A stretch of 64,000 nucleotides of DNA from Raoultibacter sp. (GCA_036655915.1 JAVVPE010000002.1:362-64361); one strand, 5' to 3'; counted from the first letter of the stretch, positions 13,598 through 18,223 are shown. Numbers and translations: made by a program. Notes: generated from the sequence alone by a model not told the origin.

Positions 13598-13678
13598 CCT
13601 TTCACGCTTTTTGTGATAAAATATCTCAAAAGTGGTAGTGCATTCCATATTTGAGAAGTTTTGAGATTCGAGGCAAGC

Positions 13679-14950
13679 ATGTATGTCACACGCGCTCTTG
13701 AGCCTTTAGTGAAAAGGTATGCGGAAAACTTTAAGGTTGTCGTGGTGACCGGGCCGCGGCAGGTGGGTAAAACAACCATGCTTAAGCACCTTATGGATGA
13801 AGAGGCCCAGCGAGGCATTAGGCGCATCTATGTAACACTTGACGACACCGCTGTGCTGCAAACAGCCAAAGATGACCCGGCCCTTTTTTTGCAACGCTAT
13901 CACCCTCCCGTCCTGATTGATGAAATACAAAAAGCCCCCGAGCTTCTTTCCGCCATCAAGATGATTGTTGATGCAGACGACGCTTGCGGCTCCGTTTGGC
14001 TTACGGGATCTCAGCCGTTTCACCTGATGAAGCAGGTATCTGAATCGCTAGCGGGACGGGTGGGCGTCATAGAGTTGTTGGGGCTTTCCGCCGCAGAGAT
14101 AGCGGGCGTATCCTCCGAGCCATACTGTCCAAGTGCTGATTACTTCATACGGCGTGTTGCCCAAGCCAAGCCGCTTGGCGTATCCGAGGTCTATGCACAT
14201 ATGCTGGCGGGCTCGTTTCCCGGAATTCGCGCGCTATCTGCCGATGTGCGGGCGGGTGCTTATGAATCGTATTTGGGCACCTATATTCTGCGTGATATTC
14301 GCGATTTGGCGCAAGTGGGCGATGAACTCAAATTCAGGCGGTTTATGGCAGCGTGCGCGGCTCTTACTTCCAAGCCGGTGGTCTATGCCGAATTGGCACG
14401 GCTGGCTGATATCGATCAAAAGACGGCGAAAACGTGGCTTTCGTTGCTGGTCAGTTCTTATGTGGTCAAGCTGGTCGAGCCCTACGCAAACAACCTGCTC
14501 AAACGCCTAAGCAAGCAGCCAATTATGCACTTTTTGGACACTGGTTTGGCCGCCTATCTTGCGGGTTGGAGCAGTGCCGAAACCTTGGAATTAGGGGCAA
14601 TGAGCGGTCAGATTTTTGAAACATTTGCTTTTACTGAAATTTATAAAAGCTTCCGCAACGCAGGCCAGCGCGCTCCGCTTTATTTTTTTAGAACTAACGA
14701 TAAAAAAGAAATCGATATGCTTATGGAACAAGATGGGACGCTTTATCCCATCGAAGTGAAAAAAAGCGCTTCACCAGGCAAAAAAGACACGCGCAATCTA
14801 GGTGCCCTTGATCCCGTGACCGCCGCAGATGTGCCACTGGATTTAACGACCTTCAAGCGCGCAATCGGCACGGGATGCATTCTGTGTTTGGCCGCCGACA
14901 CCTTCCCCATAAACTCTCGCGCCTGGGCCTTTCCCGTATGGGCGGTGTAG
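13679..14950 (+). CDS. AAA+ ATPase of the COG1373 / DUF4143 type
   Basis: Walker A GPRQVGKTT, Walker B LIDEIQ, C-terminal EIDMLME...PIEVKKS nuclease-like tail. ATG 13679 is preferred over the TTG at 13661 used by the ORF track. Confidence 0.8.
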   Translation: MYVTRALEPLVKRYAENFKVVVVTGPRQVGKTTMLKHLMDEEAQRGIRRIYVTLDDTAVLQTAKDDPALFLQRYHPPVLIDEIQKAPELLSAIKMIVDADDACGSVWLTGSQPFHLMKQVSESLAGRVGVIELLGLSAAEIAGVSSEPYCPSADYFIRRVAQAKPLGVSEVYAHMLAGSFPGIRALSADVRAGAYESYLGTYILRDIRDLAQVGDELKFRRFMAACAALTSKPVVYAELARLADIDQKTAKTWLSLLVSSYVVKLVEPYANNLLKRLSKQPIMHFLDTGLAAYLAGWSSAETLELGAMSGQIFETFAFTEIYKSFRNAGQRAPLYFFRTNDKKEIDMLMEQDGTLYPIEVKKSASPGKKDTRNLGALDPVTAADVPLDLTTFKRAIGTGCILCLAADTFPINSRAWAFPVWAV

Positions 14951-15015: not shown

Positions 15016-15038
15016 AGCCCGGGAAGGGCTTTTTGTTG
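15016..15038 (+). terminator. Weak rho-independent terminator after the ATPase gene
   Basis: AGCCC-GGGAA-GGGCT hairpin followed by TTTTTG. Confidence 0.45.
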
Positions 15039-15198
15039 TCGTTCATGTCGCTGGATTTGCTGTTCATGACAAATTGCAGACTTTTTCCGCGTAAGGTTCT
15101 AAGGTGTAGCCAGCAAGAAAACGCAGCATCTGTACCGTCTGAAACCCCGTTGCTGCACGCACGCACGCCCGCAGCGACCGACACAAAGGAGTATTACC

Positions 15199-15354
15199 AT
15201 GTGCATTATTGATTATTTGCTTATCGCCGCCATCGTCGTTTCCGCCCTTGCCTTCGGCATCACGCTTCTGTATTTGCGCAACAAGGCAAACAACGCCGAT
15301 GGTGCCACGCTTACCATCACGGGTGGTTCAGGGCTGAACACCAAAAACGACTAG
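15199..15354 (+). CDS. Unannotated 51-aa small membrane peptide; candidate precursor/signal peptide of the downstream cassette
   Basis: My own translation: MCIIDYLLIAAIVVSALAFGITLLYLRNKANNADGATLTITGGSGLNTKND. AAGGAG at 15186-15191 with a 7-nt spacer. Codon usage resembles the neighbouring genes. Too short for the ORF track. Confidence 0.55.
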   Translation: MCIIDYLLIAAIVVSALAFGITLLYLRNKANNADGATLTITGGSGLNTKND

Positions 15355-15382
15355 AGTTAGCAGCTTTTACTGCATAGCGCAA

Positions 15383-15428
15383 GAAAAGTGTGTCATACCA
15401 GCAAACCCGCTGGTCGAAAGTGTCATCC
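15383..15428 (+). promoter_or_regulatory. Imperfect direct repeat upstream of the LytTR regulator gene (candidate LytTR boxes)
   Basis: AAAGTGTGTCATACC (15385-15399) and AAAGTGTCATCC (15417-15428), about 32 bp apart, 90-130 bp upstream of the regulator start. Confidence 0.25.
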
Positions 15429-15516
15429 TTTGCTAACATAGACCCCGAACATATAAAGGTTCTTTGCTTTGCGCTGCTGCGCAATAAGGTGCAAAGAAAG
15501 AAGAGGGGTGGCAACG

Positions 15517-16245
15517 GTGATACGGCTTTGTTTGTGTGATGATGATCCACAGTTTCTTGCCGCTTGCAGAAAAAAGGCAGACAGTTTAGTTGCTCGCAAT
15601 AACTTAGAGGTGGAAACCAAAGAGTTTGAAAGTGGCGAAAGCCTGCTGTTCTTTCTGGACGAAAACGTTTCCTACTTCGATTTCATCATGATAGATATGT
15701 TGATGGGCGAACACAATGGCATCGAAACCGTGCAGATACTGCGCGATCATGGCTATGAGGGTATCGTTGTATTCCTTACTTCAAGCAAGGAATACGCTCT
15801 GGAATCCTTTAGTGTGGCACCCTTCAATTACGTGTTGAAACAAGATATGGCAACCGATGCCTTCGACAAGATATTTTTGGATGCCATCGAAGCGGTGAAG
15901 AAGGCCGAAGAACAAAAACTGGTCATTTCAACGCGGCGTTCTTCGATTGTGATGAACCTTGATGACATTATTTATATTGAAAGCAATCTGCGCAAATTGA
16001 TTTTCCACACGGTTAAAGGGAACCAAGATGCGCAATACGCCTTAGATGACGTGTTTGCCAAAACGAGAGAGCATGGTTTTTTGCGCTGCCACAAATCTTT
16101 TGTGGTCAACAGCCGCTTTGTAAAATCATGTTGCAGAACGGAGGTTGTTTTGACCACGGCTGAAACTATCCCCCTGGGTCGCACTTACGCGGATGATTTT
16201 GAGCATGGTTTGCTCAAATGTCTTCGTGAGAAGATAACGTTGTAG
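15517..16245 (+). CDS. LytTR/AlgR family response regulator
   Basis: Receiver domain (VIRLCLCDDDPQF..., DFIMIDMLM) plus C-terminal LytTR domain (IIYIESNLRKLIFHT...FLRCHKSFVVN). GTG 15517 (purine-rich AGAGGGGTGG upstream) is preferred; ATG 15469 is the alternative. Confidence 0.88.
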   Translation: MIRLCLCDDDPQFLAACRKKADSLVARNNLEVETKEFESGESLLFFLDENVSYFDFIMIDMLMGEHNGIETVQILRDHGYEGIVVFLTSSKEYALESFSVAPFNYVLKQDMATDAFDKIFLDAIEAVKKAEEQKLVISTRRSSIVMNLDDIIYIESNLRKLIFHTVKGNQDAQYALDDVFAKTREHGFLRCHKSFVVNSRFVKSCCRTEVVLTTAETIPLGRTYADDFEHGLLKCLREKITL

Positions 16246-16256
16246 GGAAGAAACCT

Positions 16257-17603
16257 ATGGAACTCGAATTCGTTTGCGTGGCGATGATGACGGTTTATAA
16301 CTGTCTTGTTATGGATTATTGCTCCAAAATTTTGGAGACGCGCCTTCCTAAGATTATCGTTTTTGCGCTGCTGCCTTTGTTGGCGGCTTTGCTATTTTTG
16401 GTGCCGATTGCCCTGGATGTGCTCATTCCCCTTATCTATGCGCTGGAATTTGCGGTCACCTTCCTGGTTATCCGCATAAGCTTTTATGGCAGATTCATCC
16501 ATATGTTTTGGGCGGCACTCAACTTTACCTTTCACACCCTTGTTATCAGGGGCATCGTGCTTGCCATTGCTTCATTGGCGGCTAACTTAAACATGTACCG
16601 CGTGATTGAAGATGGCCTGCTCAACATGCTTACACTGATCGCGACATTTTTTGTGCTGTGCCTTTTCTTGGTGGTGTTCAATGCGAAGGTTGATGTTCCC
16701 AAAGTAAAAATTCTCTTAAGCAACCCAGGGCAGCTAAAGTTTGTCTACATGCTGCAGCTGGTTATGCTTGGGTTTTTGCTGTTTTGCACCTATGCCTACT
16801 ATTACAACCTCGATCTTGTTTGGTTTACCATCTTTCACTTGCTTACCTGCGTGTTTGTGCTTATCGGGTACTACATCGCGTTTGGCATGGCGGTGCGCAC
16901 GGCGGTGTGGGTTGAAGATGAACTGAACTACCAAATTGTCGAAGCGCAGATGCAGCGCCAAATTCGTGGGTATGAAGAACAAAAAAAGCTCTACGATTTG
17001 ATGCGCCAATACAAGCACGATTTCAAAAGAATCCTTAACACCGCAAACGGCCTTTTGGCGACGGGCAACGTTGAGGAAGCCCAGGAACTTTTGGGCGAAA
17101 CGGTTACCTATGCCGATGTTAACCTGGCGCCGCGGCCAGAATACTCCAACATTCTAATCGTTGATATTGTTTTGGACGAACTGGCGGATAACTGCGATAA
17201 AAACGACATCGAACTAAGCGCTCAGTGCTTCATTTCAGAAGATGTAACCCTAACTTCGTTGCAGCTGTGCCGCATGTTCAACAATTTGGCGGCCAACGCA
17301 CTGGAGGCCTGCCAACGGCAAGCTGAGGGCAGCAAGCGTTGGATTGACATTAAAGGCCGCCTGCAAAAGGACAAATCCGTTATCGTAATGCGCAATTCCT
17401 TCGATGGAAAAGTGGTTATGGCCGGCGAAAACGAACTGGCTACCCGCAAAACAAACAAGGAATACCACGGTCTTGGCGTGCGCAATATCAAGGCCATCGT
17501 TGAAAAGAATCAGGGATTTTCCGAAATCACCATTTCCAAAAATCCCAACGTGTTTGAATTCTTCATCGCGTTGCCCCTGCAAGAAAAGCAAGGCGAGGAA
17601 TAA
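16257..17603 (+). CDS. Polytopic sensor histidine kinase, AgrC/ComD-like (peptide-sensing HPK10 type, GHKL ATPase)
   Basis: About 6-7 N-terminal TM helices. H-box QYKHDFKRILN, N-box FNNLAANALEA, G-boxes RNSFDG and HGLGVRNIK. Confidence 0.85.
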   Translation: MELEFVCVAMMTVYNCLVMDYCSKILETRLPKIIVFALLPLLAALLFLVPIALDVLIPLIYALEFAVTFLVIRISFYGRFIHMFWAALNFTFHTLVIRGIVLAIASLAANLNMYRVIEDGLLNMLTLIATFFVLCLFLVVFNAKVDVPKVKILLSNPGQLKFVYMLQLVMLGFLLFCTYAYYYNLDLVWFTIFHLLTCVFVLIGYYIAFGMAVRTAVWVEDELNYQIVEAQMQRQIRGYEEQKKLYDLMRQYKHDFKRILNTANGLLATGNVEEAQELLGETVTYADVNLAPRPEYSNILIVDIVLDELADNCDKNDIELSAQCFISEDVTLTSLQLCRMFNNLAANALEACQRQAEGSKRWIDIKGRLQKDKSVIVMRNSFDGKVVMAGENELATRKTNKEYHGLGVRNIKAIVEKNQGFSEITISKNPNVFEFFIALPLQEKQGEE

Positions 17604-18223
17604 TGAAGTGGGGGGTGGCAGGAGTACTCGTATTCTTTGCCATTAACGCCGTGCTCCTTTTTTTCAGCGTTATCAACCCTGTAACGTTTACTCAGCTTGC
17701 TCAAGATCCCGCAGCTACCATGGCAAAATATCAGGATGTTTGGAATGACACGACGGTGCACGAAGCCCCCGTCAGGGAAAAGATATATGCTGTGGGCGAT
17801 GTGGTGGGCACCGTCACAATCCCCAAGCTTGAAATTTATGAGATGCCCATTTACTACGGCACGACCGACGAAAACAAAAACTGGCAAATAACAACGCCGG
17901 GCTATGCGGGCAACTGGCAGCTGTTTGGGGAAAAGGGGATGGCGGCGCTGGGTGCCCACAACTACCAACTTTTCAGCAAGTTGGAAAAGTTGGGTGTGGG
18001 GGAAAAAGTTATCGTGGAAACCATCGATGACATCTACGTTTATGTGGTGCAGGAAGCGGGCGTCTACGATCACACCAAGCAGGATTGGGCCGATGCTGTC
18101 TATACGGGCAAGGAACCCTACTCAATCGACCTGCTTACCTGCTATCCCGCAGACGTGCTTGACACGCAAGACCGCTACGTTGTGTATGCCACCATGCAAA
18201 AAGGCACCATTTTTGTGAACTAG
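17603..18223 (+). CDS. Sortase family transpeptidase (class not assignable by eye)
   Basis: N-terminal TM anchor. Sortase pattern VGTVTIPKLEIYEMPIYYGT. Catalytic His (LGAHN), Cys in DLLTCYP (TLxTC-like), Arg in DRYVVYA. Its ATG overlaps the kinase stop (TAATG). Confidence 0.8.
   Translation: MKWGVAGVLVFFAINAVLLFFSVINPVTFTQLAQDPAATMAKYQDVWNDTTVHEAPVREKIYAVGDVVGTVTIPKLEIYEMPIYYGTTDENKNWQITTPGYAGNWQLFGEKGMAALGAHNYQLFSKLEKLGVGEKVIVETIDDIYVYVVQEAGVYDHTKQDWADAVYTGKEPYSIDLLTCYPADVLDTQDRYVVYATMQKGTIFVN

Follow-up and report, generated by a model that had tools for sequence, protein, structure and literature searches.

In Escherichia coli, the small membrane proteins MgrB and SafA modulate the histidine kinase PhoQ, MgrB acting through its periplasmic part. 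Peptide precursors of the double-glycine type follow another scheme, with a non-membrane leader of about 15–25 residues that ends in GG, a mature peptide behind it, and a C39-peptidase ABC exporter. Promoters controlled by LytTR regulators such as AgrA and ComE carry 9-bp repeats separated by a 12-bp spacer. Among sortase loci, the class D sortase operon of Bacillus anthracis consists of basI-srtC under the control of SctR (PMC3208642). In Streptococcus gordonii, the C-terminal remnant of an LPxTG adhesin cleaved by sortase A (C-pep) binds the transmembrane domain of a histidine kinase and signals (Hall et al., 2019, as referred to in PMC11502775).

The locus described here has features in common with several of these systems. 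It lies in a stretch of 64,000 nucleotides of Raoultibacter sp. DNA (the window) and comprises four plus-strand genes in the order peptide, LytTR response regulator, AgrC-like kinase and divergent sortase, the peptide gene being the first. The latter (15199–15354) encodes a 51-aa single-pass membrane peptide, MCIIDYLLIAAIVVSALAFGITLLYLRNKANNADGATLTITGGSGLNTKND, with homology to the anchors of LRR adhesins, and is preceded on the same strand by the Shine-Dalgarno sequence AAGGAG (15186–15191), located 7 nt before the ATG. The response regulator (15517–16245, with the start taken at GTG 15517) combines a receiver domain (PF00072) with a LytTR DNA-binding domain (PF04397) and shows weak similarity to BtsR/LytR/AgrA. 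The histidine kinase gene (16257–17603) encodes a protein of the AgrC/ComD type. As judged by hydropathy, about 225 residues make up its membrane part, which is polytopic and whose loops are short, and a GHKL domain (PF14501, HATPase_c_5; weak SPOB_a match) comes next. Its stop codon overlaps the start of the sortase gene (17603–18223) in the sequence ATGA. The four-gene order is retained in two related loci (L021, L022) and in part in three others (L003, L036, L047).

Upstream of the operon, a gene encoding an AAA_14/DUF4143 ATPase (13661–14950) separates it from an Rrf2 gene. This gene is missing in the relatives, where the operator and operon come straight after Rrf2, and therefore it looks like an insertion in this genome. 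The AAA_14/DUF4143 gene is divided from the peptide operon by a terminator-like hairpin with a T-run on the plus strand (15016–15040; stem at 15016–15030, then TTTTTGTTGTC), which ends the upstream gene and is also kept in the sister genome G004. A second, small hairpin, CCAGC-AAACCC-GCTGG (15398–15413, +), is situated in the spacer between the peptide and regulator genes. Four of its pairs are kept in all four sequences compared, one of them with a two-sided (compensatory) change, and its overall folding energy is weak (−8.9 kcal/mol). The same spacer (15355–15516) contains the partly conserved words AAAGTGYGTC and GAAAGYGTCA. Hairpin and words might represent an attenuator, a processing element or a second operator, which we mention only as a lead, an operator before the peptide gene (see below) having the stronger evidence.

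The peptide begins with MCIIDY, continues with a helix formed by residues 6–24, the triplet RNK, a variable linker and the block TLTITGGSG, and finishes with a short charged end. Residues 6–24 make up the single membrane-length hydrophobic segment found in a hydropathy scan, behind which the chain is polar throughout. In the stand-alone peptides the N-terminal MCIIDYLLIAA and the tail block TLTITGGSG are invariant, while the linker (NKANNADGA vs. NKETRNEGT) and the last six residues vary among lineages. The GG pair occupies residues 42–43, past the full transmembrane helix, and just 8 residues follow it. From this layout, the short N-terminus is predicted to face the outside and the tail of about 25 residues, with TLTITGGSG, to reside in the cytoplasm. 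The sequence-only reading of the window had described this ORF, its ribosome-binding site with the 7-nt spacer and its product in the same way, as one hydrophobic helix with a polar tail, and all of this was borne out. It had also called the ORF unannotated, which is correct for the 60-aa ORF track, where it is absent, but not for related MAGs, whose NCBI annotation includes a 51-aa hypothetical protein.

We found the peptide ORF to be a real gene under purifying selection. A 51-codon frame with identical start and stop is present in five lineages of one uncultured genus, labelled by NCBI as 'Raoultibacter sp.' MAGs, and the upstream alignment shows an RBS (AAAGGAG or AAAGGAA) in all five. As frame, start, stop and RBS are shared across these lineages and the changes fall mostly at codon position 3, the conservation goes beyond chance. 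At the protein level, the peptide is 96% identical to that of G004 and 75% to that of G001, both genomes of the same genus. Compared with G001, there are 11, 7 and 28 differences at codon positions 1, 2 and 3, respectively; compared with G004, 12 codon changes are synonymous and 2 are non-synonymous. The flanks of the gene are 56–79% identical across lineages, with the RBS conserved. The check suggested from the sequence alone, namely of relatives for frame conservation, synonymous bias and the motif, is answered in the affirmative by the 51 codons common to five lineages, by Nei-Gojobori dN/dS values of 0.04–0.18 for divergent pairs and by the invariance of TLTITGGSG. In the two shifted frames dN/dS is mostly 0.8–2.5 (lowest values 0.33–0.36). 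On the strength of dN/dS and of the conserved start and RBS, we also rejected the idea that the ORF is no more than the dead remains of the 3′ part of an adhesin gene.

The distribution of the peptide is narrow. A word-indexed search of a large protein collection assigned it to four clusters, all from this one genus, two of which correspond to NCBI entries 'hypothetical protein [Raoultibacter sp.]' derived from MAGs. Pfam and NCBIfam searches with the peptide gave nothing above noise, and a metagenome scan with the peptide profile gave no match. A profile search of 1.84 billion representatives added one distant peptide, P0024, the other two matches being repeat artefacts. P0024, a 42-aa protein (MCILDYILFAAIIVSCIVIGFVVMHEKAKQKERLGETIIIVQ) encoded on a 10.7 kb Logan contig, has the MCI[IL]DY start and the helix in common with the peptide and is devoid of TITGGSG.

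Some relatives contain a degenerate second copy of the peptide sequence (L020:4554–4778; also L004:119–343 and L005/L017), which in some of them sits between GH25 and Rrf2 genes. This copy, TIDYLCIIVIILSVIVFGFTIRYH*IIYCEDNTITVTGTNG, lacks an ATG and is interrupted by an in-frame TAG. By all appearances a duplicate in decay, it indicates that the peptide module can duplicate and decay.

The kinship of the peptide sequence becomes apparent when it is compared with surface proteins of the sister genome. G004 encodes two LRR adhesins of 691–695 aa with a TITGG tail, each starting with a signal peptide, behind which come LRR and Ig-like domains, a Pro-rich spacer and a single C-terminal helix. Their ends read ...ENP[VA]FGAKSLNG-LLLAAIAVS[IL]FAFGGVTLYFL-GK[SA]RQPK-[AD]STITI[TA]GGSGLR[LP]. 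The peptide is 51% identical to the adhesin helix and tail over 43 residues (E 7e-8 and 2e-7 in a search within one genome), and an HMM profile matches the adhesin anchors with E 3e-9; T-x-T-I-x-G-G-S-G is invariant in the peptide and adhesin tails. Within the peptide's own genome, no other helix is similar to it at E ≤ 10. These alignments establish the peptide as a stand-alone homolog of the adhesin membrane helix and its predicted cytoplasmic tail. In the adhesins, TITGGSG is placed in the cytoplasm because the single C-terminal helix and a run of basic residues come before it. The alignment starts just past the ENPxxGA position of the adhesins, a motif that the peptide does not contain; given this start and the homology, the peptide has the shape of the membrane fragment that cleavage at ENPxxGA would leave behind. 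TITGG-tailed adhesins were not detected in the own genome, and elsewhere the search returned only the sister genome's own protein. One of the two TITGG-tailed adhesin genes of G004 is located directly 3′ of the sortase gene, with a copy of the operator between them.

ENPxxGA belongs to a candidate sorting signal, undescribed so far, which LRR and Ig-like adhesins carry in gut Coriobacteriia. In this signal, [LP]ENP[AV][FL]GA[QK] is followed first by a hydrophobic segment and then by a basic tail, so that the motif is on the outer side of the adhesin helix. In the own genome it occurs in two adhesins (C5:1250–1411 and C75:2358–2516), in G004 at 16 ORF ends, and further at L020:7565–7909 and partly in G001. 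The tail is a different one, lacking TITGGSG, in the majority of ENPxxGA adhesins, among them the two of the own genome. The signal was absent from 36/36 other genera searched, and all genomes in which it was seen encode the divergent sortase as well. ENPxxGA may be the recognition motif of this enzyme. This co-distribution, drawn essentially from one lineage of MAGs that are 69–87% complete, counts as one evolutionary event and not as a statistic, since the genomes are kin and incomplete.

The sortase encoded by the fourth gene is membrane-anchored and divergent. It matches PF04203 (E 9e-19), retains His119, Cys180 (LLTCYP) and Arg191, and has by hydropathy an N-terminal anchor with the catalytic domain facing outward. 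It scores below every class cut-off of NCBIfam, the best being class D (57 bits vs. a cut-off of 140), and its nearest solved structure by sequence is SrtD of B. anthracis (2LN7, E 1e-5). The AlphaFold model (pLDDT 83.5) superposes on class A, C, D and E sortases with TM-target values of 0.5–0.8. As modelled, the protein has a sortase fold with a His-Cys-Arg triad and is not assignable to any of the classes A–F. We detected it in G000 and G004 by genome search and in other MAG lineages of the genus through the protein collection, and a contig scan of genomes with the sortase returned close relatives only. A second sortase (C41), likely the housekeeping enzyme for LAxTG-type signals, is present in 41/41 relatives.

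Homologs of the divergent sortase, 41–67% identical, are also encoded on low-to-mid-GC (24–47% G+C) Firmicutes-like contigs. A HATPase_c_5 kinase gene lies beside the sortase gene in six of these loci (L028, L031, L032, L033, L043, L046), in five of which (all but L028) a LytTR regulator accompanies the pair; L045 has the sortase and no called kinase or regulator domain. LRR or Ig-like adhesins adjoin the cassette in three loci (L031, L043, L046). Identity across phyla amounts to 59–63% for the sortase, 31–45% for the kinase and 33–40% for the regulator. No peptide homologs were found in the seven sortase-cassette loci of other phyla that we examined. As the Firmicutes-like regulator-kinase-sortase cassettes are without such a peptide, the latter appears to be a lineage-specific add-on.

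Several further observations were made on these loci and on the sortase family. L031, whose sortase is 41% identical, contains at 728–838 a 36-aa single-helix ORF, MINFFCNLDLLALATLIVVAVLFAIQEHNHKKRISK, directly after the end of a surface-protein gene and about 1.5 kb before the kinase gene. The layout is analogous, and the similarity of this ORF to the peptide is not significant (E 0.27). In L032 (5154–6117) and L043 (5363–6392), the sortase gene is followed by genes for a coiled-coil protein and a type I signal peptidase (S26), the coiled-coil protein having a faint DivIVA match in L043 and no Pfam match in L032, an arrangement that suggests a wider secretion and processing module. In the family alignment (A5), the position of R191 (DRYVVY) is occupied by Met or Thr in 7/15 members, and in P0010 the His and Cys are missing too. 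High conservation is nonetheless seen in a juxtamembrane block (TFTQ..Q....T...Y...W) and in ENKNWQITTPGY. Such a pattern, with a variable catalytic Arg and a conserved juxtamembrane block, is unusual for sortases.

The operon is preceded by a LytTR-type operator on the plus strand (15041–15079), GTTCATG-N14-GTTCATG, with repeats at 15041 and 15062, a 21-bp period and ACAAATTGCAG behind them. We regard it as the putative autoregulated promoter of the operon. The spacing being typical of LytTR sites, the regulator encoded by the second gene would be expected to bind these repeats. A Sigma-70 consensus scan of the region gave no match, the consensus being uninformative for this phylum. A near-identical 39-bp element occurs at three further sites of the 1.6-Mb own genome. 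The copy in C53 (8756–8794) precedes an LRR adhesin gene, that in C34 is at a contig end, and that in C32 (minus strand, about 16102–16161 counted on that strand) has three tandem repeats and precedes the gene of a 1042-aa GGDEF-type protein. In the relatives, the element precedes the peptide gene in L002 and L003 and an LRR adhesin gene in L017 and L020, the peptide gene following next in L020; in G004 it stands before both TITGG-tailed adhesin genes. Since the element is common to the peptide operon and adhesin genes, these, with the GGDEF-type gene, look like one small regulon. A related repeat, TGTCGTTCATG ... TGTCGTTTGTG, 21 bp apart, was found between the sortase and adhesin genes in a locus of an Oscillospiraceae MAG.

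In our opinion, the function most compatible with these data, although we put it at somewhat less than an even chance, is that the peptide acts as a gene-encoded look-alike of the membrane C-pep fragment, addressing the adjacent intramembrane kinase. Its sequence is that of the helix and tail of a sortase-type sorting signal, as carried by the two LRR adhesin anchors, and the kinase, being polytopic with short loops, has an architecture consistent with intramembrane sensing. As the peptide copies an adhesin anchor and opens an operon for a kinase, a regulator and a sortase, a membrane signal for the kinase is likelier than a piece cut by sortase. It does not originate from sortase cleavage, having its own ATG, RBS and promoter-proximal position. 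According to the mechanism we propose, the peptide would sit in the membrane beside the kinase and modulate it by helix-helix contact and/or through the cytoplasmic TITGGSG tail, which would provide a built-in feedback on a circuit coupling adhesin production to sortase processing. In its favour are also the operator shared with adhesin genes, the co-distribution with the sortase and ENPxxGA, and the fact that AgrB and C39 peptidase, as other processing routes, were not found in the genome. Against it weigh the sortase cassettes of Firmicutes-like loci, which do without such a peptide, the different tail of most ENPxxGA adhesins, TITGG tails being limited to one genome, and a kinase membrane part that is not hypervariable. 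The support for an action on the kinase is architectural only; the topology, the binding to the kinase and the direction of the feedback are what we infer from it.

A less probable alternative, to which we still attach some weight, is that the peptide is an accessory protein of the membrane and takes no part in signalling. It might, for instance, assist the sortase as structural partner or chaperone, perturb membranes or act in the manner of a type I toxin, or be simply a 3′ fragment of an adhesin gene that was captured recently and kept for some other reason. By size and by its N-terminal helix with a charged tail, the peptide resembles many small membrane proteins, and both its narrow distribution and the duplication and decay of the module would fit such a role. 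Strong purifying selection and an invariant cytoplasmic motif are harder to reconcile with it, as is the fixed first place in an operon of a two-component system and a sortase under a shared operator. As regards a toxin, nothing among the features described above pointed to a type I toxin-antitoxin arrangement.

Somewhat less probable again, and in our view unlikely, is that the gene encodes the exported pheromone precursor of a three-component loop formed by a peptide, an HPK10-type kinase and a LytTR regulator. The hydrophobic N-terminus would then serve as a leader or tether, a fragment near or after GG (e.g., SGLNTKND) would be released and sensed outside by the kinase, and the sortase would possibly take over the processing for which other loci have AgrB or ComA. 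The arrangement speaks for this, as the peptide gene comes first behind a LytTR-type direct-repeat promoter, with an AgrC/ComD-type kinase and a LytTR regulator downstream, just as is classic for agr, com, blp and pln loci; moreover, lineages differ in the linker and in the residues behind GG but agree in the motif. Yet, in the type I membrane adhesins the homologous module forms the cytoplasmic tail, and the N-terminus is a full transmembrane helix rather than a double-glycine leader or an amphipathic AgrD helix. A search of the own genome, 87% complete, yielded neither AgrB (PF04647) nor a C39 peptidase (PF03412). Also, the kinase sensor domain does not exhibit divergence of the specificity type: its membrane part is 0.78–0.83 identical across lineages and the cytoplasmic part 0.82–0.88, and no hypervariability of the former was seen among the three sequences compared. 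Finally, the closest cassettes in other phyla have no peptide gene.

The sequence-only reading had proposed a quite different role, in which the sortase cuts LTITG between T and G and either frees GGSGLNTKND or loads the helix peptide onto the enzyme. This we consider improbable. The L-x-x-T-G spacing is indeed there, all five stand-alone peptides keep TLTITGG unchanged, and the sortase gene belongs to the same operon. The stretch in question, ADGATLTITGGSGLNTKND, is nevertheless unlikely to be a sortase site, as TITGG is placed inside the cell by homology to the adhesins and by the positive-inside rule and as one adhesin copy has Ala in place of T. Indeed, a conserved L/P...T-G core with a scissile Thr is not retained, LTITGG of the stand-alone peptides corresponding to ITITGG and ITIAGG in the adhesin tails. 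The peptide has no N-terminal signal peptide that would expose the motif outside, its sole hydrophobic segment preceding RNK and the motif, and no hydrophobic or basic segment follows. The canonical order of motif, hydrophobic segment and positive tail is seen in the same genome in the LAPTG, MPKTG, LATTG and candidate ENPALGAQ signals, among them the peptidase at 652/730–3168, for which the LAPTG end with its hydrophobic segment and basic tail was confirmed; in the peptide, helix and basic residues come before the motif and an acidic/polar end after it, the inverted architecture that had been noted from the sequence. Equally right was the caveat that RNK predicts a cytoplasmic tail, as the adhesin tails show the same charge pattern. 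In the adhesins, ENPxxGA, separate from this motif and outside the helix, is the better-placed candidate. What survives of the proposed tie to the sortase is the shared operon and the adhesin-anchor homology, while LTITG as a recognition site finds no support.

Least probable, by a small step, is that the peptide is a sortase acceptor, whose outward-facing N-terminal Cys, once Met is removed, would attack the sortase-adhesin thioester and so ligate LRR adhesins to the peptide with its cytoplasmic TITGGSG tail, a notion prompted by the invariance of the MCI[I/L]DY start, kept even in the one distant homolog, and by Rosetta-stone logic, according to which the product would be like the single-gene LRR-helix-TITGGSG proteins of the sister genome, so that, if true, the sortase would build transmembrane adhesins able to signal into the cell.

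The look-alike of an adhesin remnant, our preferred reading, would, if true, apparently be the first case of a bacterium that encodes the membrane remnant of a sortase substrate as a gene of its own, grouped in one operon with those of an intramembrane kinase and of a sortase specific to the system. To our knowledge, signalling by sortase remnants has so far been demonstrated experimentally in one streptococcus, and a compact four-gene module with a defined operator would make its generality testable. The analysis also indicates a conserved regulator-kinase-sortase cassette that is shared with Firmicutes, and a small regulon, with adhesins and a GGDEF-type protein as its members, by which an uncultured gut genus could control its attachment. 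Among the results listed by full-text literature searches, none dealt with a LytTR-kinase-sortase cassette or with this peptide. The components are of known kinds, and it is their combination that appears to be new.

Compared with the AgrBDCA and ComCDE systems, the locus shares the small peptide gene next to genes for a LytTR regulator and a kinase of the HPK10 type (HATPase_c_5), as well as the promoter repeats with a 21-bp period. It differs from them in that no AgrB or C39 transporter was found, the fourth slot being taken by the sortase, and in that the peptide, instead of being secreted or cyclised, forms a true transmembrane helix whose tail is probably in the cytoplasm. Unlike in double-glycine precursors of the ComC/BlpC type, a helix precedes GG. 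As for MgrB and SafA, the peptide resembles them as a single-pass protein of about 50 residues that is apparently expressed under the control of the very two-component system which it would modulate, in a feedback manner. Yet, the sequences are unrelated, nothing there corresponds to the link with sortase substrates and, in contrast to MgrB, the peptide has its conserved motif on the side predicted to be cytoplasmic. The basI-srtC operon of B. anthracis is similar in encoding a specialised sortase together with its substrate under the control of a dedicated transcriptional regulator, whereas its sequence similarity is weak, the regulator family and substrate motif are other ones and a small membrane peptide is missing. 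The closest parallel in kind is offered by the C-pep of S. gordonii as outlined in the source cited above, with which the locus has in common an adhesin-derived helix with a short cytoplasmic tail, a membrane-embedded kinase and an adhesin-sortase circuit. In contrast to that system as described there, the putative motif is ENPxxGA and not LPxTG, the contact with the kinase is one that we infer, the kinase is AgrC-like with a LytTR partner, and the peptide has its own gene, start and RBS, in an operon that also encodes a dedicated divergent sortase.
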